The notes under the pieces are model-generated. The model saw only the letters and a program-made list of their open reading frames with translations, had not been told where the DNA came from and did not search any database. DNA of 64,000 nucleotides from Escherichia phage DCP80, in sequence record PQ671644.1. One strand, given 5' to 3'. Made by a program: the position numbers and the translations under genes. Of the stretch, positions 5,739 to 48,337 are shown one piece after another; the first letter of the stretch is position 1; the number at the start of each line of letters is the position of its first letter.

Positions 5739-5788
5739 AAGGTATAACGGGACTTCTAACGAGGTCCCAAAAAATAAGGACAAAAACA

Positions 5789-7789
5789 ATGTCGCAAACA
5801 ATCAGATTAAAACGTGAAATTTCTGTAGAGAAAATTCAGGCTGATGAAGACGGGATTTATGAAATTGCATTTTCTTCTGAAACCCCTGTTGAACGTCAGA
5901 TTGATACTCGTCACGGTCCACAAATTGTGAATGAAATTCTCATGCACACAGGTCCGGAAAACGCAGATTTAGAGCGTATAAATAATAATGCAAGCTTGCT
6001 GTTTAACCACAATTTCGACAACCATTTAGGTGTTGTTGTTCCTGGTTCAGTACGTATTGACAATGATAAAGTTGGCCGCGCTAAAGTAAAATTTTCAAGC
6101 GTTGGACAATTAGCACAAGAGATTAAAGCCAAGGTCGATGAAGGCACAATCTCAAAAATTTCGTTTGGATACGACATTAACGAGTATGATGTTGTTGGTG
6201 ATGACATGCTTGTTTCTCGTTGGGCACCATATGAAATTTCTTTCGTCACTGTCCCGGCAGATGATAAGGTTGGCCTCGGCCGCAGTATAAATAATATTGT
6301 AATTAACACAAATAAGGAAAAACGAATGAAACGTTACGAAGATTTTGAAATTGAAGACATCGTTGAACTGTCACGTGAAGAACTCGCTGATATGACAATC
6401 GCTGAAATCGAAGCCCTGGCTGAAGATGTACGTGCTAAGCGTGAAGAATTGCTTGACGAAGTTGAAGACGCTGAGAAAGAAGAAAAAGTTACCGATGAAG
6501 AAGATGCTGACTACGACAAAGCTGAAGGCAAAGATGCAGAAGCTAAAGTTGAAGATAAAAAAGCCGAAGGCATCGAAGACGAACTCACTGCTGAAGAGCG
6601 TGAAGAAGAAATCATCGAAATTGAAGAAATCGCTGAACGATACAAAATCGGTCGCGGAGAAGTTCGCAAAGCCATCGCAAGTGGCATGACTGCTCGTCAG
6701 TTCAAACGTTCTATTAAACCATCTAAAAACAAAAAGGAAATTCGTACTATGACTACCTCTATCGCTAAAGATACCCAGAAAAACCTCGAAGCTCGTTTTG
6801 ACCTGGCTGAAGTAACCCGTTCACTTGCTGCTGGTAAAGACATTAAAGGCGCTGCTGCTGAGTACTCTCAGGAAATGACTCGTAAACGTCAGAACGCAGG
6901 TCGTGACATTAACGGTCGTGCATATATCCCGGTAAGTGCTCTGCAAGGTCAGCGCGCAGTAAACACCGTTCCTACCGTTGCAAATATCGAACAGCACTAC
7001 GTTGATTACAACAGCTTTGTTGAATTGCTGCTCAAACCAACTGTAATTGGTAAACTGGGTGTTAACTTCCAGACCGGTCTGACCACTCCTTACGATGTAC
7101 CGAAACAAACTTCCAGCTCTGTTGATGCGTTTGGTTTCGTTGCTGAAAACGGTGACTCTCCTGAAGGCGAAAGCGGATTTGACATCATCAAATTCATGCC
7201 GCACACCTTTACTGGTGGTAACCCGATTTCTCGTCAGGCTCTTAACACCATGCCTAACCTGGCAAGCTTCATCTCTAACCACATCGTAGAACAATCTCGT
7301 TCTAAGATTCAAGGTCTGATGTTTGGTTCTGCTACTGACCCGGTTGCTTCTGGTGCTAACGCTCCGCAGAGCATCATCGCTCAGTTGGTTGCTAAGCAGA
7401 TTGGTATGACCTACAAAGAATTCGTTACCCTGGCTGCTGAAGCTGAAGGTAAAGGCGTTGCAATGGACCGCTTCAAGTATCTGATTGCTTCTGCACTTGG
7501 TGGTGAACTGAAATCCACTCTGCGTGATGCTGCTGTTGCTGGTTACATCATCGATGATGAAAACCGTATCGGTGGTCATGATGTAGTTACCTCTGGTCTG
7601 GTTAAACCTGGTCAGATTCTGTCTGGTGACTTCTCTGCAATCACTGTTGCTGAATGGGAAGGTCTGGCACTGGATATGGACGACACGACCTATCGTAACA
7701 AAGGCGCTATCGTTCCGCGTGTTTGGTGTGATATCGATTGGAAAGTTACTGCTGACGACCGTCTGTTCTTGTTCGAAAAGACAGCATAA
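5789..7789 (+). CDS. Fused prohead protease (HK97/S78-like) - acidic scaffold - major capsid protein
   Basis: N-terminus has LLFNHNFDNHLG and ISFVTVPADDKV motifs like HK97 gp4; central acidic coiled coil; C-terminal ~330 aa capsid-like. Confidence 0.7.
   Translation: MSQTIRLKREISVEKIQADEDGIYEIAFSSETPVERQIDTRHGPQIVNEILMHTGPENADLERINNNASLLFNHNFDNHLGVVVPGSVRIDNDKVGRAKVKFSSVGQLAQEIKAKVDEGTISKISFGYDINEYDVVGDDMLVSRWAPYEISFVTVPADDKVGLGRSINNIVINTNKEKRMKRYEDFEIEDIVELSREELADMTIAEIEALAEDVRAKREELLDEVEDAEKEEKVTDEEDADYDKAEGKDAEAKVEDKKAEGIEDELTAEEREEEIIEIEEIAERYKIGRGEVRKAIASGMTARQFKRSIKPSKNKKEIRTMTTSIAKDTQKNLEARFDLAEVTRSLAAGKDIKGAAAEYSQEMTRKRQNAGRDINGRAYIPVSALQGQRAVNTVPTVANIEQHYVDYNSFVELLLKPTVIGKLGVNFQTGLTTPYDVPKQTSSSVDAFGFVAENGDSPEGESGFDIIKFMPHTFTGGNPISRQALNTMPNLASFISNHIVEQSRSKIQGLMFGSATDPVASGANAPQSIIAQLVAKQIGMTYKEFVTLAAEAEGKGVAMDRFKYLIASALGGELKSTLRDAAVAGYIIDDENRIGGHDVVTSGLVKPGQILSGDFSAITVAEWEGLALDMDDTTYRNKGAIVPRVWCDIDWKVTADDRLFLFEKTA
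6286..6293 (+). promoter_or_regulatory. Internal TATAAATA late promoter inside the protease-capsid ORF
   Basis: TATAAATA then AAGGAAAAACGA-ATG, in frame, at about 6326. Confidence 0.5.
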
Positions 7790-7904
7790 ACCTAATGGAG
7801 AGAGCAATCTCTCCTATGAGTTTGGGCGCAGAAGCTCTTGATGCCGCTCCGGTTAAAAAAAGCAAGAGCGCGTCGGGTTAAATCTACTGACTAACAAACT
7901 ATAA

Positions 7905-7929
7905 GGGAGCCTTCGGGTTCCCTTTTTTG
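7905..7929 (+). terminator. Rho-independent terminator, UUCG tetraloop
   Basis: GGGAGCCTTCGGGTTCCC followed by TTTTTT. Confidence 0.7.
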
Positions 7930-7930
7930 T

Positions 7931-7938
7931 TATAAATA
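7931..7938 (+). promoter_or_regulatory. T4-type late promoter TATAAATA
   Basis: GTTATAAATAAGGTAAAGGAGAAATT-ATG (7955). Confidence 0.65.
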
Positions 7939-10898: not shown

Positions 10899-13136
10899 AT
10901 GGCTGACGTACGCGCAAATTCAAAATTTAAATTTCGTAGGTCTCGTAACCCTGGTTATATCCCTAAAGCAGCAGACCTATTAGAAGGTGAACTGTTTATC
11001 AACGTTGCTGATAAAAAATTGTATACAAAAGATGAAGAAGGTGGCGTAATTATTGCTATTGGCGGTGGTTCAGGCGGCGGCGGTGGTGAATTAGGCGGTG
11101 GCGCAATTATCATTCGTCCGGAAGACGCAGTTAACAGCAGCGGCAACTTGATTCTTTCTACAACTAAAGTTGGTGAAGCTTCTTATGCTCGTGGTTTATC
11201 TGGTCTTAATATGAAAATGCAGCAATATATACCAACTGATTCAGACCCAATAAACGTTGACTCGCTTTATCTGGAGATTGGCTCCAAAACCCAACTCAAC
11301 GATGGAGCAGCCAACCCTTATGTTGAAATTCCCGGTAAATTGGCATTTGTTACATCTCGCGGAAACTCATCAGGCGTAACAACTGCATCACCTGGTGCAA
11401 CAGTAATAACTGCAAAACCTGGTGCAACATGGCACCGTGAATTTGGTACCCCTGTTGATGAATCAACACTAAAACTTGGCGACGGCACGGTCACGATTTC
11501 TTCAAAAGACATTATAATTGGTAAGAGCACATCAGATGTTTTTACAAAATCTATACAAAATAATATGGTTTATATTAACAGCCCAAATCTTATTTTAGGT
11601 GGTTCTGTTGACATTTCTGGATTAAAAACTTTAAACGGCGGCGCAACCTCAACAATTGATGTTGGTGCTTTAACTTCACAAGGTAACACAGTTGTTAAAG
11701 GTGACCTTTATGTTGAAGGTGAAATTATTTCTGGCTCCCCAACTCCAGGTCCAAAGCCTTTAGAAGACTTAGCTGGATTAAGTTTAAAATTAACATATGG
11801 TGCAACAGTTGGTACTAATATTGATGCTGGTGGTTATGTTCGTTTAAAAGACGAATTAACTGTTAAAGGTAAACAAAATACAACTGATTACGAATTTAGT
11901 ATCCAACATCGTAATCGTTCCGGTGAAGACTGGGAAGGTAACACAATTTTTTATTCAGAAACTTTCTTAAAATCAACTAATGATGTTTATTTTGTTTCAG
12001 AAATTAATGAATTTACAACTTCTGACCCAACTTATCAAAACATAAGAGCAGCTAATATCCGTGGTAGCAATGGTACCTTTAGTGGTAATTTAACTGGTTA
12101 TTATGGTGGATTCTTTGATAATAATATCACAATCAACGAAAACGGTATTAATTTAGCAAATGATTCTGGTTATTCACTTGGATTAAACTTCTTCAGTAAT
12201 AAATCTGTTGCAATCAGTCTGAAAACTGAAGCCGATGGTGCTGGTCTGGTAACCGATTATAATGCATCTTATACCAAGTTGAAAGATGATGAATTTGTTA
12301 TCGGTACCTCAATTGGTGATGGTTTTAAAGGTGTTACAATCAATAACGTTAAAGAGACAAACGCGGGCGTAACTGTTACTCCTTCCGTTTCTTCTACAAC
12401 TGTTAAACTGATTGAAGCTAACTATGGTAACTTTTCTCCATATATCAGTTCAACGTCCAACAGCATCACTATTGCACCTGATGAACAATCTAAAGTAACT
12501 TTTAGTAACACTGGTGTAGTATTTGGCCGTGAAGTTACAACTCCTGCTGTTCAATTAGGTCAGGCCAGGGTTGAGCAAACTGGTAACATCCTGGGTGGTA
12601 CATGGGGTGTAGACCTTAAGAGTTATATCAATAACCAGATTGCAAATGGATTTGTTAACGTTACAACCAACACTGTACAACTTCCTGATGCATTAATCAG
12701 TGCAGACGGTAACGTAACTGGTGGTATCTGGGGCACTGATAAGACTTTGAAAGAGTATATCGATGCTAATGCAGGCGGTGGCGGCGGTTCAGGTGGTCGT
12801 AAAGAAGCGGTTAAAGTTTGGACTGGTTCTGTATCCGGCGCGGCGAACACAAGCCCGATGACTATTACTTCTACAGAAGATGGTGACTTCCGTTGCGGTG
12901 GAAAGTTAATGCTTAAAGAATCATCTGGTGCTTGGTTAGAGTATGATTTTGATTGTCCAGATTCAGCATCACCTCCGGCTGGCACTGTTCAGTTTAACAG
13001 ACAAATCTTTTCTCAGAACACAGGCGCATCTGATATGATTCTTGCTCAGAACAGCATGTCCGGTACAAAAACTACATGGTCGCTTTACGGTCACGCTCGT
13101 AAAACATACACCGAAGCTTGGTGGCGTCCATACTGA
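10899..13136 (+). CDS. Tail fibre protein with glycine-rich linkers
   Basis: 745 aa; N-terminal GELFINVADKKLYTKDEEG fibre motif; GGGSGGGGGELGGG and GGGGGSGG linkers. Confidence 0.55.
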   Translation: MADVRANSKFKFRRSRNPGYIPKAADLLEGELFINVADKKLYTKDEEGGVIIAIGGGSGGGGGELGGGAIIIRPEDAVNSSGNLILSTTKVGEASYARGLSGLNMKMQQYIPTDSDPINVDSLYLEIGSKTQLNDGAANPYVEIPGKLAFVTSRGNSSGVTTASPGATVITAKPGATWHREFGTPVDESTLKLGDGTVTISSKDIIIGKSTSDVFTKSIQNNMVYINSPNLILGGSVDISGLKTLNGGATSTIDVGALTSQGNTVVKGDLYVEGEIISGSPTPGPKPLEDLAGLSLKLTYGATVGTNIDAGGYVRLKDELTVKGKQNTTDYEFSIQHRNRSGEDWEGNTIFYSETFLKSTNDVYFVSEINEFTTSDPTYQNIRAANIRGSNGTFSGNLTGYYGGFFDNNITINENGINLANDSGYSLGLNFFSNKSVAISLKTEADGAGLVTDYNASYTKLKDDEFVIGTSIGDGFKGVTINNVKETNAGVTVTPSVSSTTVKLIEANYGNFSPYISSTSNSITIAPDEQSKVTFSNTGVVFGREVTTPAVQLGQARVEQTGNILGGTWGVDLKSYINNQIANGFVNVTTNTVQLPDALISADGNVTGGIWGTDKTLKEYIDANAGGGGGSGGRKEAVKVWTGSVSGAANTSPMTITSTEDGDFRCGGKLMLKESSGAWLEYDFDCPDSASPPAGTVQFNRQIFSQNTGASDMILAQNSMSGTKTTWSLYGHARKTYTEAWWRPY

Positions 13137-13140
13137 TAGA

Positions 13141-13159
13141 AGGCCTTCGGGCCTTTTTC
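13141..13159 (+). terminator. Rho-independent terminator
   Basis: AGGCCTTCGGGCCT plus TTTTT. Confidence 0.7.
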
Positions 13160-13164
13160 AGCGT

Positions 13165-13172
13165 TATAAATA
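13165..13172 (+). promoter_or_regulatory. T4-type late promoter TATAAATA
   Basis: GCGTTATAAATAAT upstream of 13211. Confidence 0.6.
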
Positions 13173-13710: not shown

Positions 13711-13732
13711 GGGACCTTCGGGTCCCTTTTTT
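13711..13732 (+). terminator. Rho-independent terminator
   Basis: GGGACCTTCGGGTCCC plus TTTTTT. Confidence 0.75.
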
Positions 13733-13735
13733 GTT

Positions 13736-13743
13736 TATAAATA
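13736..13743 (+). promoter_or_regulatory. T4-type late promoter TATAAATA
   Basis: TTTATAAATATTGC upstream of the tail chaperone gene. Confidence 0.6.
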
Positions 13744-18186: not shown

Positions 18187-18208
18187 GGGACCTTCGGGTC
18201 CCTTTTTT
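18187..18208 (+). terminator. Rho-independent terminator
   Basis: GGGACCTTCGGGTCCC plus TTTTTT. Confidence 0.75.
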
Positions 18209-18211
18209 CGT

Positions 18212-18219
18212 TATAAATA
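18212..18219 (+). promoter_or_regulatory. T4-type late promoter TATAAATA
   Basis: CGTTATAAATAAAGT upstream of 18261. Confidence 0.6.
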
Positions 18220-22958: not shown

Positions 22959-23426
22959 ATGAAAGCAATAGAGTACAAACATATGTTATACGAAAGACAA
23001 CATGGAATTTGTCTGCTATGTAAACTTCCGCTTGAAGATGTTAAAAGTTCCCATCTAGACCACGACCACGCTTTAACAGGTCCTAATGCTGGATTCTGCC
23101 GAGGACTTCTATGTCCTAGTTGTAACGTCTTGGAAGGAACTTTGCTGCATAAATTCAACAGAAGTGGATTAAAAAGTAAAACAACCTTTACAGCTTATCT
23201 TAATAACCTGCTATCTTATTATGCAAATCCACTGCATGAAAAGATACACCCTAATTTTATTAGAGATAAGGTGAAGGCTGTTTCACGGATGAGCAATCAA
23301 AGTATCATAGCTGAAATTGAAAAACTGACCTTTAACCTCCCAGCTGATAAGTCAAAGAAAGGACTTGTCAGTTTCTATCGTAAGGCTCTTAAGAAGTCCC
23401 TGGAGGACGTATGTCTGCAAAGTTAA
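22959..23426 (+). CDS. 49: Endonuclease VII-like Holliday junction resolvase
   Basis: CLLC...HLDHDH...GLLCPSCN...HKFNRSGLK...IHPNF closely follows T4 gp49 as recalled. Confidence 0.8.
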   Translation: MKAIEYKHMLYERQHGICLLCKLPLEDVKSSHLDHDHALTGPNAGFCRGLLCPSCNVLEGTLLHKFNRSGLKSKTTFTAYLNNLLSYYANPLHEKIHPNFIRDKVKAVSRMSNQSIIAEIEKLTFNLPADKSKKGLVSFYRKALKKSLEDVCLQS

Positions 23427-24868: not shown

Positions 24869-25333
24869 ATGTCAGAAGCTTTTAACATGCTGATGAAAGA
24901 TGAAGGCATCGAGTATCATCTTTATAAATGCACGCAAGGATACTGGACAATCGGGATTGGTCATATGATTTCCCGTGATAAACAAACAGCTGAACGATTC
25001 CTTAATGAGAAATTTGGGAAGTGTGTAATAAGTAAGGAGCAGGCTATCCAGTTGTTCAAGCAAGATTATAATCATGCAGTATTAGGTGCACAGAGTATCG
25101 TAAGATTAGACACCTACCGTGAATTAGCATTGTCTAATATGGTTTTCCAGATGGGACTTGGTGGTGTACTGAAGTTCAAGAAAATGATAGCTGCACTGAA
25201 GATACAAGACTGGAACGAAGCTTATAAGCAGGCTTTAGATTCTACATGGTATAAACAAACACCTAATCGTGCCAAACGTGTGGCCGAGGTACTAAGAGAT
25301 GGGAAACAAGCATATGTCAAACATTACTCCTGA
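24869..25333 (+). CDS. e: Lysozyme, T4 e-type (GH24)
   Basis: EG..Y.C..GYWTIGIGH, NMVFQMG and WYKQTPNRAKRV match T4 lysozyme motifs. Confidence 0.85.
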   Translation: MSEAFNMLMKDEGIEYHLYKCTQGYWTIGIGHMISRDKQTAERFLNEKFGKCVISKEQAIQLFKQDYNHAVLGAQSIVRLDTYRELALSNMVFQMGLGGVLKFKKMIAALKIQDWNEAYKQALDSTWYKQTPNRAKRVAEVLRDGKQAYVKHYS

Positions 25334-30710: not shown

Positions 30711-30720
30711 NNNNNNNNNN
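30711..30720. other. Assembly gap (N10), scaffold joint
   Basis: Run of N after the repeated terminal 111 bp. Confidence 0.9.
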
Positions 30721-34776: not shown

Positions 34777-34979
34777 TGCTTAGCTCCATTCCAAATTACA
34801 TCAACAACAGACTTCAAACCATTATCCTGGATTTGTGTGAATACTTCAGCAGCAATCCAGACCTGGAAACCAATCATTGCAATGGCACCAATGAAAATCA
34901 GGATAATCATTGCCACAATAAACTTGAACATAAAGTCAAAGCGACGATTGGATTTCTGAAAGTGTGAATTGTAATTCAT
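34773..34979 (-). CDS. Small membrane protein
   Basis: Start moved to internal Met MNYNSHF; homolog truncated by gap at 49790. Confidence 0.4.
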   Translation of the reverse strand: MNYNSHFQKSNRRFDFMFKFIVAMIILIFIGAIAMIGFQVWIAAEVFTQIQDNGLKSVVDVIWNGAKQ

Positions 34980-35132
34980 AATATTATCCTCAAAAGAAAT
35001 AGTTAAAGTAAACACGTACATGGTCAATCATAAAAATAATTGGGAAAATGCTCAGGACAACAAACAATACAAACATGTTCCAAATGGCTTTAAGTAACTT
35101 TTTCATAATCATCTCCAGTAGTTGATAGGTTC

Positions 35133-35161
35133 ATTATACTACAACCACCGGAGATGTACAC
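35133..35161 (-). promoter_or_regulatory. Sigma70-type early promoter (-35 GTGTACA, -10 TATAAT) with conserved leader CTATCAACTACTGGAG
   Basis: Minus-strand AAAAGAGTGTACA-16 nt-TATAAT; same cassette recurs at many minus-strand genes. Confidence 0.55.
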
Positions 35162-35251
35162 TCTTTTATGCAAGTTTCATTAATAATAAACTAAAACAAA
35201 CGCAAATTACTGGAATACACAACATCCAGATAAGACACCAGGTTTTGCTGC

Positions 35252-35518
35252 TCAAAATATCACCTCTTTTATTTCAATCAGACCCCTGTGCAATGCGGTG
35301 CGAAGGTCATAAAGAATATCTATGCCATCAACATTATCCAGTTTTCCATCAATAAGCTTTTTTAAATCATGCTTTGATGCAACTAGCGGGCGAAGAAATT
35401 TACATTCAGAAAGAGACAATTCTGTAGTAATATCATCACCATCACCTGACGCATCATACATGGCAGCAACAACCATACCTGTAACTTTGTGCTTGGCGTA
35501 ATATAATTTAATATCCAT
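35252..35518 (-). CDS. Hypothetical protein, member of small paralog family
   Basis: MDIKLYYAKHKVTG; paralogs at 48689 and 48949. Confidence 0.4.
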   Translation of the reverse strand: MDIKLYYAKHKVTGMVVAAMYDASGDGDDITTELSLSECKFLRPLVASKHDLKKLIDGKLDNVDGIDILYDLRTALHRGLIEIKEVIF

Positions 35519-35762
35519 TCTGTTTTCCTCACGCATAACGATTGTATGTATTTTTACGACAAGCGTAAAATTGACGCTCAGTAACTGCAAAACTTTTTCC
35601 GCGTTGTTGCATTAATTTAAAAAATTCAGTAATATCGCCATTAACTTCAAGGTATAAAGTCATTGCATATTGAGCAGGTTTCATTTTATTCTCCAGTCTG
35701 TTTGGTAACTCAGTATGGAATCATTATGCACTGACTCCATACTGATGTACACTACTTTTTAA

Positions 35763-36038
35763 TTAATTGTGCATTTGTTCTTTAACTTCTTTATATGCGC
35801 CAACTGCATTCACGACCCCAGTAAAATCTGCAGTCCCACGATAGAGATAGAAAGCAATTTCAGTCAGGTGGTAGACTTCAAATTCTGAAAGATAAACGAT
35901 AACGTCATAATATGCAACTTGACCCTGGACTTCGTTGAATGCCACATCAAAAATTTCATGGGTTGGAAAATTGATGTTGTTGTTTTTGAGTGCTTGGATA
36001 AGAATTTGTTTGATGTTGTGAGTAGTAACGTGTTCCAT
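35763..36038 (-). CDS. Hypothetical protein
   Basis: Start set at MEHVTTH after promoter cassette. Confidence 0.4.
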   Translation of the reverse strand: MEHVTTHNIKQILIQALKNNNINFPTHEIFDVAFNEVQGQVAYYDVIVYLSEFEVYHLTEIAFYLYRGTADFTGVVNAVGAYKEVKEQMHN

Positions 36039-36085
36039 GATAATGTCCTCATTTGTTGGTATGAGGACATTATTACACGGTTGGT

Positions 36086-36679
36086 TCAGCTTGTAAACCG
36101 GTGATAGGGAAATTTTTCTTCTGAACAAGAACGGAGGTACCAGCCATCCCCTTGTGACTTCTGCACAAGACCAGACTCAGGAACGAAAGCACCAGGCCCA
36201 GCAAGGAATTTTGGTTTAAATCTATAACCTTTGAGAGTCTCTTTTACATCGAGCATAATCATAAGGTCAGCAAGCTTGTGCTGCATAAAAGGACCAAGAT
36301 TAATCCCGTAACCATGCGGATAATCGCCCTGGTGGCCAGTGTGTACGGATATCCATTTGGAACCAGACTGGTGGGTCTTGACTTCGATTCTTACCCCTTC
36401 CTTCGAAACTACATCAAATGCAAAGGAATAAGGATTATCGTAATCTTCGTCGCCGCCACATAAAAAACCAGAAGTCCATTTAGCAATAGCTTGTTCAGCC
36501 ATTGTAGCAACCATGCATCTTTGCATGACTTGCTCACGGTCCTGACCTGGGTCTTTACGCAATGAATACCGGGTAGTGTCTACAATCTTCTGCAGGGATT
36601 CGGGGTTTAAGTCTTCCTTTGTATAAAGAAAGGAGGGCATCTTTTTCAGATGCTCCCAGGTTTTACTCTTCTGAATCAT
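36086..36679 (-). CDS. denB: Endonuclease IV DenB-like
   Basis: AIAKW, YDNPY, FAFDV.SKEG.RIEVK.HQSGSKWI and GLVQKS.G.GWYLR resemble T4 DenB; sits between rIIB and ndd as in T4. Confidence 0.6.
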   Translation of the reverse strand: MIQKSKTWEHLKKMPSFLYTKEDLNPESLQKIVDTTRYSLRKDPGQDREQVMQRCMVATMAEQAIAKWTSGFLCGGDEDYDNPYSFAFDVVSKEGVRIEVKTHQSGSKWISVHTGHQGDYPHGYGINLGPFMQHKLADLMIMLDVKETLKGYRFKPKFLAGPGAFVPESGLVQKSQGDGWYLRSCSEEKFPYHRFTS

Positions 36680-36932
36680 TTACGACCTCATCGATACCGA
36701 CGATTCCACGGATGTGAAGCTCACCATAATACAAACGGTCATTAGCATCAAATGTATCAGAATCCGGGTCAGGGAATTCCCCAACAACTACTTCATCACA
36801 TTCCAACCAACCATAGTGAACATCACCTTCATGCTTGATGAGCTTACCGCAGTAAACTATTCCTGCATAATGATGACCCCGGAGATTTGAAACTTTGATG
36901 TCACGGTCTGACACATTGAAATGCTTAATCAT
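36663..36932 (-). CDS. Hypothetical protein
   Basis: 89-aa ORF. Confidence 0.4.
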   Translation of the reverse strand: MIKHFNVSDRDIKVSNLRGHHYAGIVYCGKLIKHEGDVHYGWLECDEVVVGEFPDPDSDTFDANDRLYYGELHIRGIVGIDEVVNDSEE

Positions 36933-36935
36933 AAT

Positions 36936-37133
36936 TTATTCACCAAAATAAGAGATACGAGTTGCCAGTACATGAGCATAAGCGCCCATCGCGTCTAACT
37001 GTGCAATCAAAAGACCTTGTTGACGAGCATCGAGAGTTTCAAAAACACCGCCCTTAATAAATTCTTCAAGAGCATTGATTTTCAAAACCAGCTGGTCATG
37101 TTCTTCAACTACACGTGCTTGGAAACCTAACAT
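36936..37133 (-). CDS. Hypothetical protein
   Basis: 65-aa ORF. Confidence 0.4.
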   Translation of the reverse strand: MLGFQARVVEEHDQLVLKINALEEFIKGGVFETLDARQQGLLIAQLDAMGAYAHVLATRISYFGE

Positions 37134-37146
37134 AAAGCCTCATTAG

Positions 37147-37160
37147 GGGCCGAAGCCCCG
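37147..37160. terminator. Terminator-type hairpin GGGGCCGAAGCCCC
   Basis: In the rIIB-downstream intergenic gap where arm 2 carries an HNH gene. Confidence 0.5.
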
Positions 37161-37166
37161 ATTAAT

Positions 37167-38141
37167 TTAGAATTGTTCAGTTACATCATCAAGGACCAGG
37201 TAACCACAGACCCTCATCTTACTATCACCATAATCCACCGGGATACTTACAACATCACGCGGGTGAACTTTACAGGATACGATGCGTCCATCACCATGAC
37301 CAAAACCACTTCCAATATAACCTTTAGAGCAAACATGCAACCCAGTTGAACAAGTTTGTTCGTCATTATCGTTCACACGAGAGCGCGGCATTTTAACATA
37401 TTGACCAGGGCTGTTGTCGAATGTATTTGAGTGACAATCTTTGTAAGTTGCACGAACCATTTTCCATGCGATGAAATGACCGTCTTCGGTGATTTCGATA
37501 TCGTTCGCAACCAGGAAGTCAAACAAACGCTGTACGGCTTTCTCACTCGGGTTCTCAAGGAGATTCTCAAGGAACGGCAGATAGAATTCAAAGTCTTCGC
37601 CATTTTGCATTGAATCAATGATACGAGTAACCAGGCCAGAGCGTAGTTCAATTCCCTGATAGAACAGACTACCACCTTCAATACGCACATCGCCTTTCAC
37701 ATATTTTTGTACTGCAGCTTTGATTGAGATAAACTCGATAGCATCATCAAAACGAGATTCAATCAATGCCTGAATAATATCATTAAAGTGTTTATGGTCT
37801 TTTGTGGCGTTCCAGACTGTGCGACCTTCAGTGATGGAAACGAATTTGCTTGATGCGTTCCATACGATTTCTGGGCGGCTACCGCCGATTGTATCTTCAA
37901 CGACCGGAACTTCAACCATTACTGTCACCGGAGCATTAATCGCCACACCAACAGCTGCTTTCAGTGATGCAGAAATGGTTTTAGATAATTTTGATTCTTT
38001 ATCATTTTTCAAAACACGGCGAATGGTGTCAACCGATACACCGAAATTATCTGCTAGTTCCTGTTGGGTATAATTACCAGTTTTATAAAGAGAAACTACC
38101 TGGTTTTGGTCAAATTTGGATAAAGCTTTAATATTAAACAT
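37167..38141 (-). CDS. rIIB: rIIB protein
   Basis: MFNIK...GNYTQQELA..GVSVDTIRRVLKN and C-terminal HVCSKGYI...VHPRDVVSIP match T4 rIIB. Confidence 0.85.
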   Translation of the reverse strand: MFNIKALSKFDQNQVVSLYKTGNYTQQELADNFGVSVDTIRRVLKNDKESKLSKTISASLKAAVGVAINAPVTVMVEVPVVEDTIGGSRPEIVWNASSKFVSITEGRTVWNATKDHKHFNDIIQALIESRFDDAIEFISIKAAVQKYVKGDVRIEGGSLFYQGIELRSGLVTRIIDSMQNGEDFEFYLPFLENLLENPSEKAVQRLFDFLVANDIEITEDGHFIAWKMVRATYKDCHSNTFDNSPGQYVKMPRSRVNDNDEQTCSTGLHVCSKGYIGSGFGHGDGRIVSCKVHPRDVVSIPVDYGDSKMRVCGYLVLDDVTEQF

Positions 38142-38142
38142 A

Positions 38143-40377
38143 TTATTCCTTATTGGCCGCTTCCACGGCCTTCATGATTTGAGCAACGTTCTGTACTTGT
38201 TCAGTTGACATAGCGTTACGGTTATATAAAAAGTGTGAAACAATCGGGTGATTCTTTTCAAATTCAAAAACCATTTTATCGCTTGTTACCGAAGCGTTTT
38301 TGGTCAGGTCGTCATAAATCTTATTACAAAGGACCAGCGTTTCCTGCATGGTCTTATCAACCGTTCCACTGTTATATGCGTTATAAGCAAAGAACTTATT
38401 GAACTGCATTAGTTCGGCATAGTCAGTATTCACATCTTTCTGAACATCTTTTGCATAAAAATACTTGAACATAAAATTCAGTTCTGCATATTCAGACAGG
38501 ATAGGAATATAATAACGCGAACGGCTTGAAGCGGCAATGTACTGGTCTGCATCAACCGCATCAATCAATTCCACATAACGATTGACTGCAGCTTCAATCA
38601 GACAATCGCACTGCGCCAGCTTGGTAACCTTTTTCTGAAGCTGTGGACGAATAACACAGAATTCATTGATTTCCAACAGATTCGCCAGTTTGCACAATGT
38701 CTGGGTCCCGAAGGTCGTGGTGCCATATTCTTGATTCAACGGGGAAATGCTACTGCGGTTAATGAATACAGCATAACCATCGATTTCCTCTGCATCAGCT
38801 GCACATGTAAATTCTTCAACAGACTGCCAGCGACCATTGGTTTTAGTCCAACGAATCAATGATGGAGTCTTTGACTTAATGCGCGCTTTCGGGTCAGCAA
38901 CCGGAATCCAGTCTTTTACAAGGGCAGTCAGTTCAGACGTACGATAGATATTAACCGTATCGCCTTCAAATCGTTCCTGGAGTTGAACCATCAACCGTGT
39001 CTGAATTTCGCTGGTCGGGTCAACAAACAGTAAACTACTACCCTGACGAGTCGGGACTTTACCAGATGCAATAAGCTTTTTAGCTTTTGCGCTGGTATCA
39101 TACAACATTGAACTGATACCACGAATCATCGCAATTCGCCCTTTAACATCGTCAATAACAATGTTCAAGGTATCATTCTGAATACCAAACATGCTCGTCA
39201 GACTTGCCGTGTTCGAGCTTGAGCTTGAGTTGCGCAGACGTTTCAGACGAGTGTCACGATAGATATCATAGACAACCCCGGCATTAATAAGGTCTTTGTC
39301 CAGCTCGAACATTTCGTACATCTGGTTAAAGGTCAATTGTGATTTCGTAAATTTCGTTTCAGCATTACGAGCTTTCAGAAAATTACGAGCTTCATAATTC
39401 AGATTCTGCAATTCGCGATATGTATGGCGAAGACATTCTGATTCCTGCCATTTCTTACAATCGTCTTCCATGACTTTCTTATCAAGGGCTTCAATACGTT
39501 CAACGATATTTGCGACCGTACGTTTGTCCAGTGATAACGCTTCGCGAGAAGGTGCAATATCCAACGAACCCATCGGGAACTTAATAAAGACAACATCATT
39601 TTTGGCAGTCATCCAGGTTTTCTTGGTGTAACCATCACCAATCGGATAAACAATTCCGCCATAAATTGCATAAAGTCCATAACGTTCTGGACTGCTATAA
39701 TTAATACGCGCTGGAGCATAGTAATCATCAAATTCCGGGAAGTATTCAATTTCGCCAGCGCCTTGCACTTCAGCCAGCCCAGCAAATGGACGCATGATAT
39801 ACGCAATCTCGTAGCGGAACTTACCAAAATCATTACTATCAACCGGGACAACAACTTCAATCCCTGTGCGGTCACCAGGTTTCATTGGTTCACTAAAGGT
39901 TGGCTTAATCTGTGGACCATCGCCGTCCATATAAGCGACATATCCATTAACTTGACCATCATGATATGAAATCAGGCTAAACGTCTCGGTATAACTGAAC
40001 GGAGATTTAGAACCCAGACCAAAGCCACCAATAAAATCGTTGGATTCGGCCTTGGATGATGCAAAGAAACTGTTATACAGACCTGGAGTATTTTCATCAC
40101 CACGAATCTGGAAATCACTCATACCCGGACCAAAGTCACGACATACAAAACGTGGGTCCAGTTCACCAGGAGCTTGCACAATGAATTTATCCTGACATCC
40201 ATTGAGCATATGAGCATCAATCATATTGGTAATCAGCTCACGAACAACCGCGCGCACCTTGTTTGTATAAAGGTCGCTGGTCAGAATCTTAAACACCTTT
40301 GGAGATGCCTGGATTGTGAATGCTGATGCCTTGGCACCATTACCAAGGATTGTTTCCTTTTCAGTTTCTAAAATCAT
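38143..40377 (-). CDS. rIIA: rIIA protein
   Basis: MILETEKETILGNGAKASAFTIQASPKVFKIL...VVRELITNMIDAH matches T4 rIIA N-terminus. Confidence 0.9.
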   Translation of the reverse strand: MILETEKETILGNGAKASAFTIQASPKVFKILTSDLYTNKVRAVVRELITNMIDAHMLNGCQDKFIVQAPGELDPRFVCRDFGPGMSDFQIRGDENTPGLYNSFFASSKAESNDFIGGFGLGSKSPFSYTETFSLISYHDGQVNGYVAYMDGDGPQIKPTFSEPMKPGDRTGIEVVVPVDSNDFGKFRYEIAYIMRPFAGLAEVQGAGEIEYFPEFDDYYAPARINYSSPERYGLYAIYGGIVYPIGDGYTKKTWMTAKNDVVFIKFPMGSLDIAPSREALSLDKRTVANIVERIEALDKKVMEDDCKKWQESECLRHTYRELQNLNYEARNFLKARNAETKFTKSQLTFNQMYEMFELDKDLINAGVVYDIYRDTRLKRLRNSSSSSNTASLTSMFGIQNDTLNIVIDDVKGRIAMIRGISSMLYDTSAKAKKLIASGKVPTRQGSSLLFVDPTSEIQTRLMVQLQERFEGDTVNIYRTSELTALVKDWIPVADPKARIKSKTPSLIRWTKTNGRWQSVEEFTCAADAEEIDGYAVFINRSSISPLNQEYGTTTFGTQTLCKLANLLEINEFCVIRPQLQKKVTKLAQCDCLIEAAVNRYVELIDAVDADQYIAASSRSRYYIPILSEYAELNFMFKYFYAKDVQKDVNTDYAELMQFNKFFAYNAYNSGTVDKTMQETLVLCNKIYDDLTKNASVTSDKMVFEFEKNHPIVSHFLYNRNAMSTEQVQNVAQIMKAVEAANKE

Positions 40378-40384
40378 GTTTTTC

Positions 40385-40594
40385 TCACTTTATGTTACGT
40401 TTGATTAATTCTGCAACTTCAAGAAGTTCATCCTTTGTTGCGGTGTCTGAAGCTATTTTAATACGGATTTCTTTGAAGCGTTCTTTAAACTCTTCAGCTT
40501 CTCTTATATCAAAAAAACGTTGGATAACACGGTATTCTTTATGGATAGCCTTATCAAACAGTTCCATATTAACTTTGAAGTTCGTCATTTCCAA
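40385..40594 (-). CDS. Hypothetical protein upstream of rIIA
   Basis: 69-aa ORF, same in both arms. Confidence 0.4.
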   Translation of the reverse strand: MEMTNFKVNMELFDKAIHKEYRVIQRFFDIREAEEFKERFKEIRIKIASDTATKDELLEVAELIKRNIK

Positions 40595-40853
40595 TCTCCT
40601 GTAATATTTTTCTCATACTACGCATGGTAGCTTTATGTTCTTGGTCATGGTATATCAATGCAAGGAGTGCTTCAATTCGCTCCTCAGGGACCTTCTGGCC
40701 AGCCTTAATTCTCATGGCTGATGTTCTTACAGCTAACAAGTAACTTCGCTTCCTGTCGTTATCTGGGAGCCCCTGCACTTTCCTCAGACCTGCTTCCATA
40801 ATACACCGTGCGACATTTTGCAGATTAACTAAACTTCCGTCAGACATAATCAT
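40569..40853 (-). CDS. Hypothetical protein
   Basis: 94-aa ORF, same in both arms. Confidence 0.4.
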   Translation of the reverse strand: MIMSDGSLVNLQNVARCIMEAGLRKVQGLPDNDRKRSYLLAVRTSAMRIKAGQKVPEERIEALLALIYHDQEHKATMRSMRKILQEIGNDELQS

Positions 40854-40910
40854 ATTTTCACCTCAAAGACATCTTAACACACTTTTTGTGGCTTGTACAT
40901 AATAAAAAGG

Positions 40911-40928
40911 TCTCCCGAAGGAGACCAA
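40911..40928. terminator. Terminator hairpin GGTCTCCCGAAGGAGACC
   Basis: Inverted copy at 42992. Confidence 0.6.
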
Positions 40929-40983
40929 ATTTTATTCTACTTTATAGACTTGACCATACGCCATGAAAGTTTCACCTTCCCAG

Positions 40984-41040
40984 GTTTCGCACGNNNNNNN
41001 NNNNNNNNNNNNNNNNNNNNNNNNNNNNNNNNNNNNNNNN
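40984..41040. other. Assembly gap (N57), scaffold joint
   Basis: N-run; removes 5' end of gene 39. Confidence 0.9.
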
Positions 41041-42796: not shown

Positions 42797-42991
42797 GATG
42801 TGGGAGAATATTCTCCCGCTACTAGGAGACAATATGACTAAATACTGGATTACACTCGCTACCGGTGAATATGGTTTTCTCTGGGCAGAGAAAAAGCCTT
42901 TGTTTGCAGAATTTGTAACAATCACGTGCGAAACCTGGGAAGGTGAAACTTTCATGGCGTATGGTCAAGTCTATAAAGTAGAATAAAATTT

Positions 42992-43014
42992 GGTCTCCTT
43001 CGGGAGACCTTTTT
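42992..43014 (+). terminator. Rho-independent terminator
   Basis: GGTCTCCTTCGGGAGACC plus TTTTTATT. Confidence 0.7.
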
Positions 43015-43064
43015 ATTATGTACAAGCCACAAAAATTGTGTTAAGATGTCTTTGAGGTGAAAAT

Positions 43065-43349
43065 ATGATTATGTCTGACGGAAGTTTAGTTAATCTGCAG
43101 AATGTCGCACGGTGTATTATGGAAGCAGGCCTGAGGAAGGTACAGGAGCTCCCAGATAGCGACAGGAAGCGAAGTTACTTGTTAGCTGTAAGAACAGCAG
43201 CCATGAGCATTAAGGCTGGCCAGAAGGTCCCTGAGGAGCGAATTGAAGCACTTCTTGCATTGATATACCATGACCAAGAACATAAAGCTACCATGCGTAG
43301 TATGAGAAAAATATTACAGGAGATTGGAAATGACGAACTTCAAAGTTAA
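43065..43349 (+). CDS. Hypothetical protein (homolog of 40569..40853)
   Basis: 94 aa, 4 substitutions versus arm 1. Confidence 0.4.
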   Translation: MIMSDGSLVNLQNVARCIMEAGLRKVQELPDSDRKRSYLLAVRTAAMSIKAGQKVPEERIEALLALIYHDQEHKATMRSMRKILQEIGNDELQS

Positions 43350-43533
43350 TATGGAGCTGTTTGATAAAGCTGTTCATAAAGAATACCGCGTTATCCAACG
43401 ATTTTTTGATATAAGAGAAGCTGAAGAGTTTAAAGAACGCTTCAAAGAAATCCGTATTAAAATAGCTTCAGACACCGCAACAAAGGATGAACTTCTTGAA
43501 GTTGCAGAATTAATCAAACGTAACATAAAGTGA
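43324..43533 (+). CDS. Hypothetical protein (homolog of 40385..40594)
   Basis: 69 aa. Confidence 0.4.
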   Translation: MEMTNFKVNMELFDKAVHKEYRVIQRFFDIREAEEFKERFKEIRIKIASDTATKDELLEVAELIKRNIK

Positions 43534-43540
43534 GAAAAAC

Positions 43541-45775
43541 ATGATTTTAGAAACTGAAAAGGAAACAATCCTTGGTAATGGTGCCAAGGCATCAGCATTC
43601 ACAATCCAGGCATCTCCAAAGGTGTTTAAGATTCTGACCAGCGACCTTTATACAAACAAGGTGCGCGCGGTTGTTCGTGAGCTGATTACCAATATGATTG
43701 ATGCTCATATGCTCAATGGCTGTCAGGATAAATTCATTGTTCAAGCTCCTGGTGAACTGGACCCACGTTTTGTGTGTCGTGACTTTGGTCCAGGTATGAG
43801 TGATTTCCAGATTCGTGGTGATGAAAATACGCCAGGTCTGTATAACAGTTTCTTTGCATCATCCAAGGCTGAATCCAATGATTTTATTGGTGGCTTCGGC
43901 TTGGGTTCTAAATCTCCGTTTAGTTATACAGAGACGTTTAGCCTGATTTCATATCATGATGGACAAGTTAATGGTTATGTCGCTTATATGGACGGTGATG
44001 GTCCACAGATTAAGCCAACCTTTAGCGAACCAATGAAACCTGGTGACCGCACAGGGATTGAAGTTGTTGTCCCGGTTGATAGTAATGATTTCGGTAAGTT
44101 CCGTTATGAGATTGCATATATCATGCGTCCATTTGCTGGACTGGCTGAAGTGCAAGGCGTAGGCGAAATTAATTACTTCCCAGAATTTGATGATTATTAT
44201 GCTCCAGCGCGTATTAATTATAGCAGTCCAGAACGTTATGGACTTTATGCAATTTATGGTGGAATTGTTTATCCGATTGGTGATGGTTACACCAAGAAAA
44301 CCTGGATGACTGCCAAAAATGATGTTGTCTTTATTAAGTTCCCAATGGGTTCGCTGGATATTGCACCTTCTCGCGAAGCGTTATCACTGGACAAACGTAC
44401 GGTCGCAAATATCGTTGAACGTATTGAAGCCCTTGATAAGAAAGTCATGGAAGATGATTGTAAGAAATGGCAGGAATCAGAATGTCTCCGCCATACATAT
44501 CGCGAATTGCAGAATCTGAATTATGAAGCTCGTAATTTTCTGAAAGCTCGTAATGTTGAAACGAAATTTACGAAATCACAATTGACCTTTAACCAGATGT
44601 ACGAAATGTTCGAGCTGGACAAAGACCTTATTAATGCCGGGGTTGTCTATGATATCTATCGCGATACTCGTCTGAAACGTCTGCGTAACGCAAGCTCAAG
44701 CTCGAACACGGCAAGTCTGACGCGCATGTTTGGTATTCAGACTGATACCTTGAACATTGTTATTGATGATGCTAAAGGGCGAATTGCGATGATTCGTGGT
44801 ATCAGTTCAATGTTGTATGATACCAGCGCGAAAGCTAAAAAGCTTATTGCATCTGGTAAAGTCCCGACTCGTCAGGGTAGTAGTTTACTGTTTGTTGACC
44901 CAACCAGCGAAATTCAAACACGGTTGATGGTTCAACTCCAGGAACGATTTAAAGGCGATACGGTTAATATCTATCGTACGTCTGAACTGACTGCCCTTGT
45001 AAAAGACTGGATTCCGGTTGCTGACCCGAAAGCGCGCGTTAAGTCAAAGACTCCATCATTGATTCGTTGGACTAAAACTAATGGTCGCTGGCAGTCTGTT
45101 GAAGAATTTACATGTGCAGCTGATGCAGAGGAAATCGATGGTTATGCTGTATTCATTAACCGCAGTAGCATTTCCCCGTTGAATCAAGAATACGGCACCA
45201 CGACCTTCGGGACCCAGACATTGTGTAAACTGGCAAACCTGTTGGAAATCAATGAATTCTGTGTTATTCGTCCACAGCTTCAGAAAAAGGTTACCAAGCT
45301 GGCGCAGTGCGATTGTCTGATTGAAGCTGCAGTCAATCGTTATGTGGAATTGATTGATGCGGTTGATGCGGACCAGTACATTGCCGCTTCAAGCCGTTCG
45401 CGTTATTATATTCCTATCCTGTCTGAATATGCAGAACTGAATTTTATGTTCAAGTATTTTTATGCAAAAGATGTTCAGAAAGATGTGAATACTGACTATG
45501 CCGAACTAATGCAGTTCAATAAGTTCTTTGCTTATAACGCATATAACAGTGGAACAGTTGATAAGACCATGCAGGAAACATTGGTCCTTTGTAATAAGAT
45601 TTATGACGACCTGACCAAAAACGCTTCGGTAACAAGCGATAAAATGGTTTTTGAATTTGAAAAGAATCACCCGATTGTTTCACACTTTTTATATAACCGT
45701 AACGCTATGTCAACTGAACAAGTACAGAACGTTGCTCAAATCATGAAGGCCGTGGAAGCGGCCAATAAGGAATAA
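43541..45775 (+). CDS. rIIA: rIIA protein (second copy)
   Basis: 744 aa, about 8 substitutions versus 38143..40377. Confidence 0.9.
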   Translation: MILETEKETILGNGAKASAFTIQASPKVFKILTSDLYTNKVRAVVRELITNMIDAHMLNGCQDKFIVQAPGELDPRFVCRDFGPGMSDFQIRGDENTPGLYNSFFASSKAESNDFIGGFGLGSKSPFSYTETFSLISYHDGQVNGYVAYMDGDGPQIKPTFSEPMKPGDRTGIEVVVPVDSNDFGKFRYEIAYIMRPFAGLAEVQGVGEINYFPEFDDYYAPARINYSSPERYGLYAIYGGIVYPIGDGYTKKTWMTAKNDVVFIKFPMGSLDIAPSREALSLDKRTVANIVERIEALDKKVMEDDCKKWQESECLRHTYRELQNLNYEARNFLKARNVETKFTKSQLTFNQMYEMFELDKDLINAGVVYDIYRDTRLKRLRNASSSSNTASLTRMFGIQTDTLNIVIDDAKGRIAMIRGISSMLYDTSAKAKKLIASGKVPTRQGSSLLFVDPTSEIQTRLMVQLQERFKGDTVNIYRTSELTALVKDWIPVADPKARVKSKTPSLIRWTKTNGRWQSVEEFTCAADAEEIDGYAVFINRSSISPLNQEYGTTTFGTQTLCKLANLLEINEFCVIRPQLQKKVTKLAQCDCLIEAAVNRYVELIDAVDADQYIAASSRSRYYIPILSEYAELNFMFKYFYAKDVQKDVNTDYAELMQFNKFFAYNAYNSGTVDKTMQETLVLCNKIYDDLTKNASVTSDKMVFEFEKNHPIVSHFLYNRNAMSTEQVQNVAQIMKAVEAANKE

Positions 45776-45776
45776 T

Positions 45777-46754: not shown

Positions 46755-47238
46755 ACAAACAATTGCTAAAGATGGCTCGGCTCGTGGTATTGTCCACGGG
46801 CTAGGTCACACGCCTGAATACATTGTATGGATTGGCATGAAAGCTCGGTGTTGCAATCCAACACATATTAGTTATTCTCGATATGGCGGTCGGGGTATCA
46901 CTGTTTGCGATGAATGGCTGCATGATTTTGAAAGATTTTATACAGATATGGGGCCACGACCCACTGACAAACATCAACTTGACCGAACAGATAACGATAA
47001 AGGGTACTCTCCCGATAACTGCAGATGGGTTAGTCCAGGCGAGAATGCTTTAAATAAGCGCCCGTATAATAACAACAAGTCTGGATTTAAAGGAGTCTCG
47101 TTTGATAAACGAGCTTTGAATAAACCATGGCGAGCCACTATTATGCGAAATAAAAAACAAATTCAAGTCGGAGCTTTTGCAACTCCAGAAGAAGCAAATG
47201 AAGCTCGATTAAAATATATGGAAGAACACAATGTCTAA
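46747..47238 (+). CDS. HNH homing endonuclease with AP2-like DNA-binding domain
   Basis: GGRGITVCDEW...LDRTDNDKGYSPDNCRWV then KSGFKGVSF...WRA; absent from equivalent site in arm 1. Confidence 0.7.
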   Translation: MIKQTIAKDGSARGIVHGLGHTPEYIVWIGMKARCCNPTHISYSRYGGRGITVCDEWLHDFERFYTDMGPRPTDKHQLDRTDNDKGYSPDNCRWVSPGENALNKRPYNNNKSGFKGVSFDKRALNKPWRATIMRNKKQIQVGAFATPEEANEARLKYMEEHNV

Positions 47239-47440
47239 AGAAATGTTAGGTTTCCAAGCACGTGTAGTTGAAGAACATGACCAGCTGGTTTTGAAAATTA
47301 ATGCTCTTGAAGAATTTATTAAGGGCGGAGTTTTTGAAACTCTCGATGCTCGTCAACAAGGTCTTTTGATTGCCCAGTTAGATGCAATGGGTGCATATGC
47401 TCATATACTGGCAACTCGTATCTCTTATTTTGGTGAATAA
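47231..47440 (+). CDS. Hypothetical protein (homolog of 36936..37133)
   Basis: 69 aa. Confidence 0.4.
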   Translation: MSKEMLGFQARVVEEHDQLVLKINALEEFIKGGVFETLDARQQGLLIAQLDAMGAYAHILATRISYFGE

Positions 47441-47443
47441 ATT

Positions 47444-48290: not shown

Positions 48291-48337
48291 ACCAACTGTG
48301 TAATAATGTCCTCATACCAACAAATAAGGACATTATC

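Follow-up and report, generated by a model that had tools for sequence, protein, structure and literature searches.

A protease-scaffold-capsid fusion gene of Escherichia phage DCP80 with a predicted nested start for a protease-free product

The 64,000-nucleotide (nt) stretch of sequence record PQ671644.1 (Escherichia phage DCP80) which was analysed here, and which we call the window, opens with a contiguous siphovirus-type module (segment 1, positions 1-30710). Directly downstream of the portal gene this module carries a gene in which a prohead protease, a scaffold and a major capsid protein are joined in a single open reading frame (ORF). We describe this fused gene, the signals which suggest that a second, protease-free protein may be initiated inside it at Met180, and the element in which it is found.

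The fused gene and its relatives

The frame is uninterrupted, with neither a stop codon nor a frameshift over its 666 codons. A preliminary description of this DNA, made from the letters alone, had proposed protease, scaffold and capsid parts within one frame and had named in advance a break between the domains as the thing to look for; none is present, and the domains follow one another in the proposed order. Both of the anticipated Pfam profiles are matched above their curated cutoffs, Peptidase_S78 (PF04586) at amino acids (aa) 57-159 with 36.1 bits (cutoff 21) and Phage_capsid (PF05065) from aa 409 with 41.2 bits (cutoff 24.2). The putative catalytic residues H74, H79 and S125, which were placed by alignment and not from a solved protease structure, are invariant in the 15-sequence alignment A1. 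At the other end of the protein a sequence search of PDB aligned the capsid protein of roseophage R4C (8gta_A) with aa 408-651 (E value 6e-19), and the top Foldseek matches of the capsid domain are the capsids of R4C, the gene transfer agent (GTA) and HK97 (probability 1.00), which assigns it to the HK97 fold.

An AlphaFold2 (AF2) model built from the 15-sequence alignment, with a mean predicted local distance difference test score (pLDDT) of 67.6, divides the protein into a beta-rich protease (aa 1-154), a disordered linker (aa 155-182), a helical region (from aa 180 to about 310), another disordered linker (aa 311-328), further helices (aa 330-387) and the capsid domain (aa 408-666). The middle region is acidic, as had been described, with Asp and Glu making up 34% of aa 180-320, and is predicted to be helical. 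The product is a protease-scaffold-capsid triple fusion; an exact-protein look-up found no identical copy of the 666-aa protein on record.

Fusions of this kind are common. A tblastn search recovered the architecture, at about 28% identity over aa 7-653, from 78 deposited phages including phiRSP, Jilinvirus, Cronusvirus (with R4C), Foxunavirus, VP882 and Mica, and gene 7 of RcCronus matches aa 26-653. A protein search returned 2135 homologs, and both Pfam domains are present in all 120 of those listed. Many of the homologs are from Klebsiella, Enterobacter, E. coli and Shigella chromosomes, those of enterobacterial prophages being 40-68% identical, and intact triple fusions are also found in assemblies of Bacteroidaceae, Sphaerochaetaceae, Opitutales and Verrucomicrobia. 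Loci L043-L047, which had given matches to the protease only, were considered as split genes and rejected, since each is a complete triple fusion whose C-terminal part has diverged; among the loci examined the gene was never found split. The same three-part ORF has been named in actinobacteriophage clusters EE, AN, AX and others (PMC7302621), and a fusion of capsid and protease has been described for the Rhodobacter phages of the RcC cluster (PMC8601537). The architecture has therefore already been described, and the proposed nested expression is the new part. Literature searching of incomplete coverage brought up no account of nested starts or internal promoters in triple fusions, which is absence of evidence only; it likewise yielded no transcript, ribosome-profiling or protein data on this gene or any homolog, and the structure and proteomics papers on R4C contain no discussion of the N-terminal part.

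The features of the gene and its flanks are collected in Table 1. The upstream TATAAATA box is conserved exactly in a 94%-identical relative (L040) despite heavy divergence of the intergenic region, and the leader stem is kept in the same relative through compensatory changes (GGAGC/GCTCC); other relatives have different GC-rich hairpins in the equivalent leader position. Since one terminator, at 7903-7924, closes the transcription unit, any internal transcripts would share their 3' end with the full-length mRNA. The next TATAAATA box follows directly, at 7931.

Table 1. Positions of observed and predicted features of the fused gene and its flanks
Feature	Position	Strand	Product	Evidence
Upstream TATAAATA box, putative T4-type late promoter of the full-length mRNA, overlapping the portal stop codon	5731..5738	+		exact in L040
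5'-leader stem-loop (GGGACTTC/GAGGTCCC) between the box and the Shine-Dalgarno sequence (SD)	5749..5768	+		RNAfold, -16.2 kcal/mol for the leader
SD for the full-length protein, AAGGA	5776..5780	+		-5.9 kcal/mol, equal to the median of likely true starts
Full-length fused ORF (protease, linker, scaffold, capsid protein)	5789..7789	+	666 aa, 73.7 kDa	ATG start, Pfam, AF2 model, Foldseek
Prohead protease domain, ending in the conserved VPADDKVGLGR	5789..6283	+	aa 1-165	PF04586, AF2 beta-rich domain aa 1-154
Second internal TATAAATA box, lineage-specific	5977..5984	+		retained in L039 and L040, missing from remoter relatives
Internal TATAAATA box right after the GLGR codons, putative promoter of the nested mRNA (start of transcription expected near 6299)	6286..6293	+		NTA-AAT-A core in 15/15 lineages
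Internal SD AAGGAA, 6-7 nt before ATG 6326	6314..6319	+		pairing -6.2 kcal/mol; SD in 14/15 related lineages
Candidate nested in-frame ORF from Met180 (scaffold and capsid protein without protease)	6326..7789	+	487 aa, 53.7 kDa	SD, conservation, AF2 linker position
Weaker candidate second nested start, Met321 (AAGGA at 6735-6739)	6749..7789	+	346 aa, 37.3 kDa	SD energy, conserved Met, linker location
Approximate mature HK97-fold capsid protein	6977..7786	+	aa ~397-666, ~29 kDa	alignment to the 268-residue R4C chain 8gta_A, which sets only an approximate cleavage position
Intrinsic terminator closing the transcription unit	7903..7930	+		9-bp stem and T-run

A candidate start and promoter within the gene

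The preliminary description had pointed to three signals near the end of the protease-coding part, the internal TATAAATA box, AAGGAA and an in-frame ATG at codon 180 (6326-6328), and had suggested that a scaffold-capsid product could be made separately. All three lie exactly where it had put them, and comparative sequence evidence supports the possibility of a separate product. In the AF2 model Met180 stands at the end of the first disordered linker and at the beginning of the first scaffold helix. When SDs were scored by their pairing energy with the 3' end of 16S, that of Met180 fell within the top 2.6% of the 346 internal in-frame ATGs of the window and was as good as those of the likely true starts, for which the median is -5.9 kcal/mol. 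The 60-nt region around this start is nearly unstructured and belongs to the least structured 3% of the gene: its minimum free energy is -1.8 kcal/mol, where the gene averages -9.6 +/- 3.5 (RNAfold).

The linker which follows the motif VPADDxVGLGR varies in length and sequence among homologs, yet the protein alignment has the methionine retained. Among homologs of at least 47% identity 87% have a Met in the Met180 column, the remainder having one a few residues off, and the E. coli group of 40% identity has a Met at the equivalent position. Of the 15 related lineages examined, 14 have after the protease domain a Met preceded by a good SD, which lies 7-11 nt before the ATG and takes the form AAGGA, AAAGGA, GAAGGA or GGAGG. 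The residues that these motifs encode differ (K-E, K-G, E-G, L-E), and so does the peptide at the junction (KEKR, KGNSR, EGKN, EGKR, EAKRD), though AGGA or GGAG is retained. Ranked against the codon positions of its own Lys/Glu-rich region, the junction SD comes within the top 2-8% in all but one of eight close lineages, which gives a product of about 4e-11 that is valid only if the lineages are independent; a further six lineages score between -5.4 and -5.7. Usable SDs are also found at the junction Met of distant fused genes, namely those of VP882 (-7.1), Salmonella PT1 (-6.1), RcCronus (-6.0) and R4C (-9.5), while the versions from Bacteroidaceae, Sphaerochaetaceae and Opitutales keep the junction Met behind an A-rich leader without an SD.

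The box upstream of this start is one of 17 copies of TATAAATA in the window, against 3.84 expected, a number reached by none of 100 shuffled sequences. Sixteen of the 17 are in segment 1, every one co-oriented with the genes. The intergenic boxes of that segment precede SD-led starts by 16-50 nt, several of them directly behind terminator T-runs, and the distance from the internal box to ATG 6326 is 32 nt. As a -10 element without a -35 element, enriched and strand-matched to late-type genes, the box has the make-up of a T4-type late promoter. No sigma-70-type promoter was predicted near it, and that alternative for the internal site was rejected. In the syntenic 33-kb element of E. coli (L057) the corresponding sequence is CTAAATA, with 13 copies on the coding strand against 4.3 expected. 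These stand 39-65 nt before gene starts, e.g. those of the TerS-like, fibre and tail-tube genes, and the copy which follows GLNR is 39 nt upstream of Met182.

An nnTAAATA box, read as NTA-AAT-A directly after the GLGR codons, is present in all 15 lineages. Its NTA codon is ATA, CTA or TTA, codons which account for 2-21% of their synonymous family per gene, and the residues encoded by the box change between lineages (I or L, followed by T, I, N, K or R). Just two of the 54 Ile codons of the present gene are ATA, each inside one of its two internal TATAAATA boxes. The other of these boxes, at 5977, provides a control: at the equivalent site (R-I-N-N) relatives use the common codons ATT, ATC or CTG. 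The 5977 box is accordingly confined to its own lineage, with synonymous sites turned over between lineages, and was rejected as a family-wide feature.

Two further comparisons connect the internal box with promoters elsewhere in the same genomes. By the two bases before TAAATA the boxes can be sorted into three flavours (TA, AA and [AT]C). In 9 of 11 comparable lineages the internal box and that upstream of the same gene agree in flavour; since the flavours go with clades, the match counts as about three independent co-changes and not eleven. In L063 an identical 13-mer, TACTAAATACAAG, is found at both the upstream and the internal box. The 43 nt from box to ATG (6286-6328) were also compared with all positions on both strands of the 30.7-kb segment, and one match stood out, that to the promoter-leader at 13165, which belongs to the major tail gene. 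The two are identical at 40 of 43 bases, and the score of 27 compares with a background of 3.3 +/- 2.2 and with 4-13 for other boxes.

Could an AT-rich stretch have come to contain TATAAATA, AAGGA and ATG by chance? The linker is AT-rich, and the 8-mer does occur by chance (3.84 expected per window). The number of boxes expected in the 60 nt before any given ATG is, however, only about 0.002, the three elements are found together in 14 of 15 lineages, and both the rare-codon use and the leader identity with 13165 speak against coincidence. The comparative data effectively refute chance and support the view that box, SD and ATG are no accident of one sequence.

A more serious alternative is that the gene yields a polyprotein only. 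All subunits would then be full length and the protease would free itself, with the Met, the purine stretch and the TAAATA core held by peptide constraint, for example as a cleavage or docking motif such as RMKR, or as an SD-like pause that aids folding. No homolog has a break in the ORF, a single protein is what databases annotate, the closer relatives keep RMKR fairly well, and gpO of P2 has been reported as one self-cleaving protein, as quoted in a passage of bioRxiv 10.64898/2026.09.13.751334. Such an account leaves aside that the residues encoding the SD change (KE, KG, EG, LE) while AGG is kept, that the box employs rare NTA codons across changing amino acids and tracks the promoter flavour of each genome, that the leader nearly copies a genuine intergenic promoter-leader, and that the start region is unusually unstructured. 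Since these observations are unexpected for a peptide motif or a pause site, we consider a polyprotein-only gene unlikely.

Other points do weigh against internal initiation and an internal promoter. AAGGA arises fairly easily from Lys/Glu-rich codons, and R-M-K-R could be conserved as a motif of the peptide. Probability products overstate significance, since the lineages have common ancestry. The junction SD of one relative (L041) is poor (-1.9), and it is no better than moderate, in the 6th-18th percentile, in phiRSP, Mica, Alexa and Murka, four of the eight distant phages. Among 31 E. coli prophage copies synonymous diversity drops to zero over codons 166-177, the stretch from the box through the SD, but the tract of low diversity extends to about codon 209 and is not specific. 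Finally, no gp55- or gp33-like gene was detected among the scanned ORFs of segment 1, a PHROGs search included. The "late promoter" of the preliminary description stands in so far as the boxes are enriched, co-oriented and free of a -35 element; the gp55-type factor gene which the term presupposes was not detected in the same contiguous segment. Genes for gp45, gp44 and gp62 are present on T4-like segments of the scaffold, but across N-runs from segment 1, and a PHROGs search of the E. coli element L057 found no gp55-like factor either.

The internal boxes might also be real late promoters whose role is to boost transcription of the capsid part and of downstream genes, like many intragenic late promoters of T4, the Met180 protein being incidental. 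Five of the 11 plus-strand boxes of segment 1 are intragenic (3838, 4229, 5977, 6286 and 10595), some of them hundreds of nt before the next start. With the 7903 terminator right after the gene, however, there is nothing downstream to boost, and a transcript from about 6299 is translatable in frame solely from Met180 onwards, where the conserved SD lies. SD and Met are moreover conserved where the box differs or is unrecognisable, as in the distant GC-rich phages. We hold this explanation to be very improbable.

On balance the sequence comparisons argue that Met180 is quite probably functional as a start; for the 6286 box we also lean towards function, as a promoter, with less assurance. The reading we prefer, two nested proteins with internal signals for the shorter one, has in our judgement a probability of roughly 70%. 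The gene would be expressed as at least two in-frame proteins with an identical C-terminus. A full-length 74-kDa protein would be translated from ATG 5789 on an mRNA begun at the 5731 box and bearing a stabilising 5' hairpin, and would be a minority subunit of the capsid through which the HK97-family protease enters the procapsid. From Met180 a 54-kDa scaffold-capsid protein, forming the bulk of the approximately 400 subunits of the shell, would be produced by initiation inside the mRNA at the conserved SD. In this lineage shorter 3'-co-terminal mRNAs may arise as well, from the boxes within the protease-coding part (6286 and probably also 5977). After assembly the tethered protease would cut away its own domain and the scaffold, so that a capsid protein of about 29 kDa remains. 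The ORF, its domains, the signals and their conservation and statistics are observed; we infer that the two proteins are both produced, in what ratio and how they are processed, and that a gp55-type RNA polymerase reads the boxes, the steps of assembly and processing by analogy with the biology of lambda, HK97 and herpesviruses.

Three nested products instead of two can be envisaged if Met321 (ATG 6749) is also used, giving a 37-kDa capsid protein with a short N-terminal extension. The preliminary description had mentioned neither this candidate start nor the box at 5977. Its SD (-5.6) is in the top 4% of internal ATGs, its initiation region is likewise in the top 4% for lack of structure, its column is 100% conserved among homologs of at least 47% identity, and in the AF2 model it lies within the second disordered linker. 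The E. coli element has an equivalent Met334 with the SD AAGGAC and a CTAAATA box about 50 nt upstream. In most relatives, on the other hand, the "SD" is merely GGCGGT or GGTGGT (GGnGG), 10-12 nt from the ATG and set in strongly conserved codons (KAPAVIRKM), so that coding constraint may explain it; two lineages score just -3.0 and -3.8, and the window has no TATAAATA upstream of 6749. A start at Met321 is thus a tentative proposal, on which we would rather bet against than for.

If Met180 is used, the consequences are not confined to this gene. Triple fusions comprise thousands of phage and prophage homologs across several phyla, each annotated as one protein, and that annotation creates a puzzle of stoichiometry, as a shell of about 400 subunits would hold about 400 protease domains. 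A conserved nested start would explain how a low ratio of protease to capsid protein could be set. It also suggests a rule for annotation, which is to seek an SD-led Met just after the motif VPADxxVGxGR.

The surrounding element

Runs of N at 30711-30720, 40994-41040, 49791-49800, 56743-56760 and 62887-62940 divide the window into six segments. Segments 2-6 are T4-like, with motA, gp52, ndd, denB, rIIA/B, gp39, gp47/46, gp45, gp44/62, gp41 and uvsX, and share 96-99.9% identity with 170-kb coliphages, among them Escherichia phage 212, SP18 and VR20. Because the breakpoints of homology coincide with the N-runs, gene order across these is unreliable, and physical linkage of the siphovirus-type module to T4-like genes cannot be claimed, the junction at 30711-30720 being such a run. 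An apparent 6-kb inverted duplication (34833-40993 and 42925-49790, 91-99% complementary, with gp39 between the arms) was likewise rejected as biology: the rIIA-rIIB-denB arms are on different segments separated by an N-run and are only about 96% alike. They are likely to represent two co-occurring T4-like strains scaffolded together.

The virion module of segment 1 is complete, with TerL, a lambda-family portal, the fused gene, fibres, a major tail protein, a tape measure, Dit and a J-like tip. Alongside these lie genes of TerS-like and HNH type, an endonuclease VII about 50% identical to the gp49 of T-even phages (22959-23426), a lysozyme gene (24869-25333) and a fibre (10899-13136) whose N-terminus is gp37-like. 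The segment shows no recognisable genes for replication, an integrase or gp55, and no DNA relatives of the module were found among the phages deposited in GenBank. A second member (L058) lies on a 31.6-kb contig, and integrated relatives in E. coli, of about 33 kb, are inserted in hicB, have a serine recombinase and use the CTAAATA box in the same manner. Relatives of the module also have genes of T4 type for tail-fibre assembly: in L060 a gp57A-like gene (PF17594; 2513-2713) lies between the portal gene and the fused capsid gene, and L061 (5763-7962) and L062 (6885-7953) encode fibres with Phage_T4_gp36 or gp37_trimer domains.

Most transcription units of this element of about 31 kb, on either strand, stand behind one of the 16 TATAAATA boxes. 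Besides the two in the fused gene, intragenic boxes are found at 3838 (in the 161-aa ORF before the portal gene), 4229 (35 nt into the portal gene, with an in-frame SD-ATG downstream in the same ORF at 4509) and 10595 (in a 699-aa fibre-like gene). Terminator-promoter cassettes are repeated at 7903-7938, 13145-13172, 13716-13743 and 18192-18219. In each a CTTCGGG(T)(T)CCC stem and a T-run are followed within 1-7 nt by TATAAATA (7 nt for the 13165 box), so that each late unit ends and the next begins within about 40 nt. A recurring late leader, in which TATAAATAAA-nGTAT(G)AAAAC is followed by a GC-rich stem-loop (e.g. GAAGCATCAATTCCGGTGCTTC, GAGACATCAATTCCGGTGTCTC), precedes small minus-strand genes at 26955, 27414, 28083, 29216 and 30297 (-). 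The leader of the fused gene at 5731 (+), GGTATAACGGGACTTCTAACGAGGTCCC, is of the same type. Such leaders are probably 5' hairpins that stabilise mRNA. Between 29230 and 29800, in the minus-strand reading, are about 600 nt of non-coding DNA with several AAAACAGCCT(G)TTTT(C/T)-like motifs; inspection by eye also picks out a sigma-70-like TTGATA-17-TATAAC. The stretch could serve the element as an origin or for early control.

What has come to light is a family of siphovirus-type elements with T4-late-like, -10-only boxes, which raises the question of the factor that reads them; this promoter wiring is a more unusual lead than the nested start itself. One speculative reading is that the element is a satellite or hyperparasite of T4-like phages, which borrows late transcription, and perhaps replication, from its helper and builds its own capsids and tails. 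We think this improbable. Were it so, the internal promoters would turn hijacked gp55-RNA polymerase into bulk capsid protein, and the integrated enterobacterial relatives, with their CTAAATA or AATAAATA boxes, would make up a wider family with the same wiring. A literature search found no description of T4-type promoters in satellites.

Comparison with known nested and fused systems

The putative promoters of the element resemble the late promoters of T4 in the identical 8-mer TATAAATA, the missing -35 element, the enrichment, and the strand-matched position close before late-type genes. Those of T4 are read by RNA polymerase with gp55, gp33 and gp45. The boxes described here differ in belonging to a siphovirus-type, lambda/HK97-like module and not to a T4-like virion module, and in that relatives carry the variants CTAAATA and AATAAATA.

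The preliminary description had likened the arrangement to lambda C/Nu3, extended through the capsid gene, and the comparison is apt; the nested frame here runs to the stop at 7789. The lambda genes, whose nesting was reportedly described by Shaw and Murialdo in 1980, likewise have an in-frame internal start at the boundary of protease and scaffold and a protease-free product which shares its C-terminus with the longer one, and the protease is thereby delivered at low copy number beside abundant scaffold. They differ in that the lambda capsid protein E has a separate gene, whereas the present nested frame continues through the capsid domain; the defining feature of C/Nu3, a nested product that is scaffold alone with the capsid protein encoded separately, is thus absent here. 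The C protease of lambda is moreover of the ClpP/S49 type, another family than Peptidase_S78. To our knowledge Nu3 is without a promoter of its own, and the internal promoter proposed here has no counterpart in lambda.

By analogy the closer system is UL26/UL26.5 of HSV-1 (herpes simplex virus 1), since in that virus a separate promoter, lying within the larger ORF, drives the nested product. UL26.5, said to have been recognised as a nested scaffold gene by Liu and Roizman in 1991, is in frame with UL26, is transcribed from a promoter within the protease-coding part into mRNAs that are 3'-co-terminal with the longer one, and yields a product far more abundant than that which bears the protease. 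The geometry proposed here is alike, with the box at 6286, the ATG at 6326 and the shared terminator at 7903. HSV-1 differs as a eukaryotic virus with an RNA polymerase II promoter and a separate VP5 capsid gene, whereas the promoter discussed here is predicted from sequence. If functional, it would be the bacterial-virus counterpart of UL26.5.

HK97 shares with the present gene the S78 protease, the capsid fold and a scaffold-like N-terminal domain, joined to the capsid protein, which the protease removes in HK97 and would remove here (gp4/gp5; PMC10275583). Its protease is a separate gene, and its delta domain has about 100 aa as against about 217 aa (180-396) here. The other triple fusions (clusters EE/AN/AX, RcC, R4C, VP882, Jilinvirus and Foxunavirus) have the same three-part ORF, and have been annotated and discussed as single proteins. 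The nested scheme of lambda C/Nu3 and HSV-1 UL26/UL26.5 is set out in bioRxiv 10.64898/2026.09.13.751334, which adds gp17/gp17.5 of the archaeal virus HFTV1, a prohead-protease gene with an in-frame internal scaffold start identified by ribosome profiling and mass spectrometry. HFTV1 differs in having a separate capsid protein and no reported internal promoter, and its evidence is experimental where ours is comparative. A nested start in the triple fusions would extend the protease/scaffold principle of lambda, the herpesviruses and HFTV1 to a third gene architecture.

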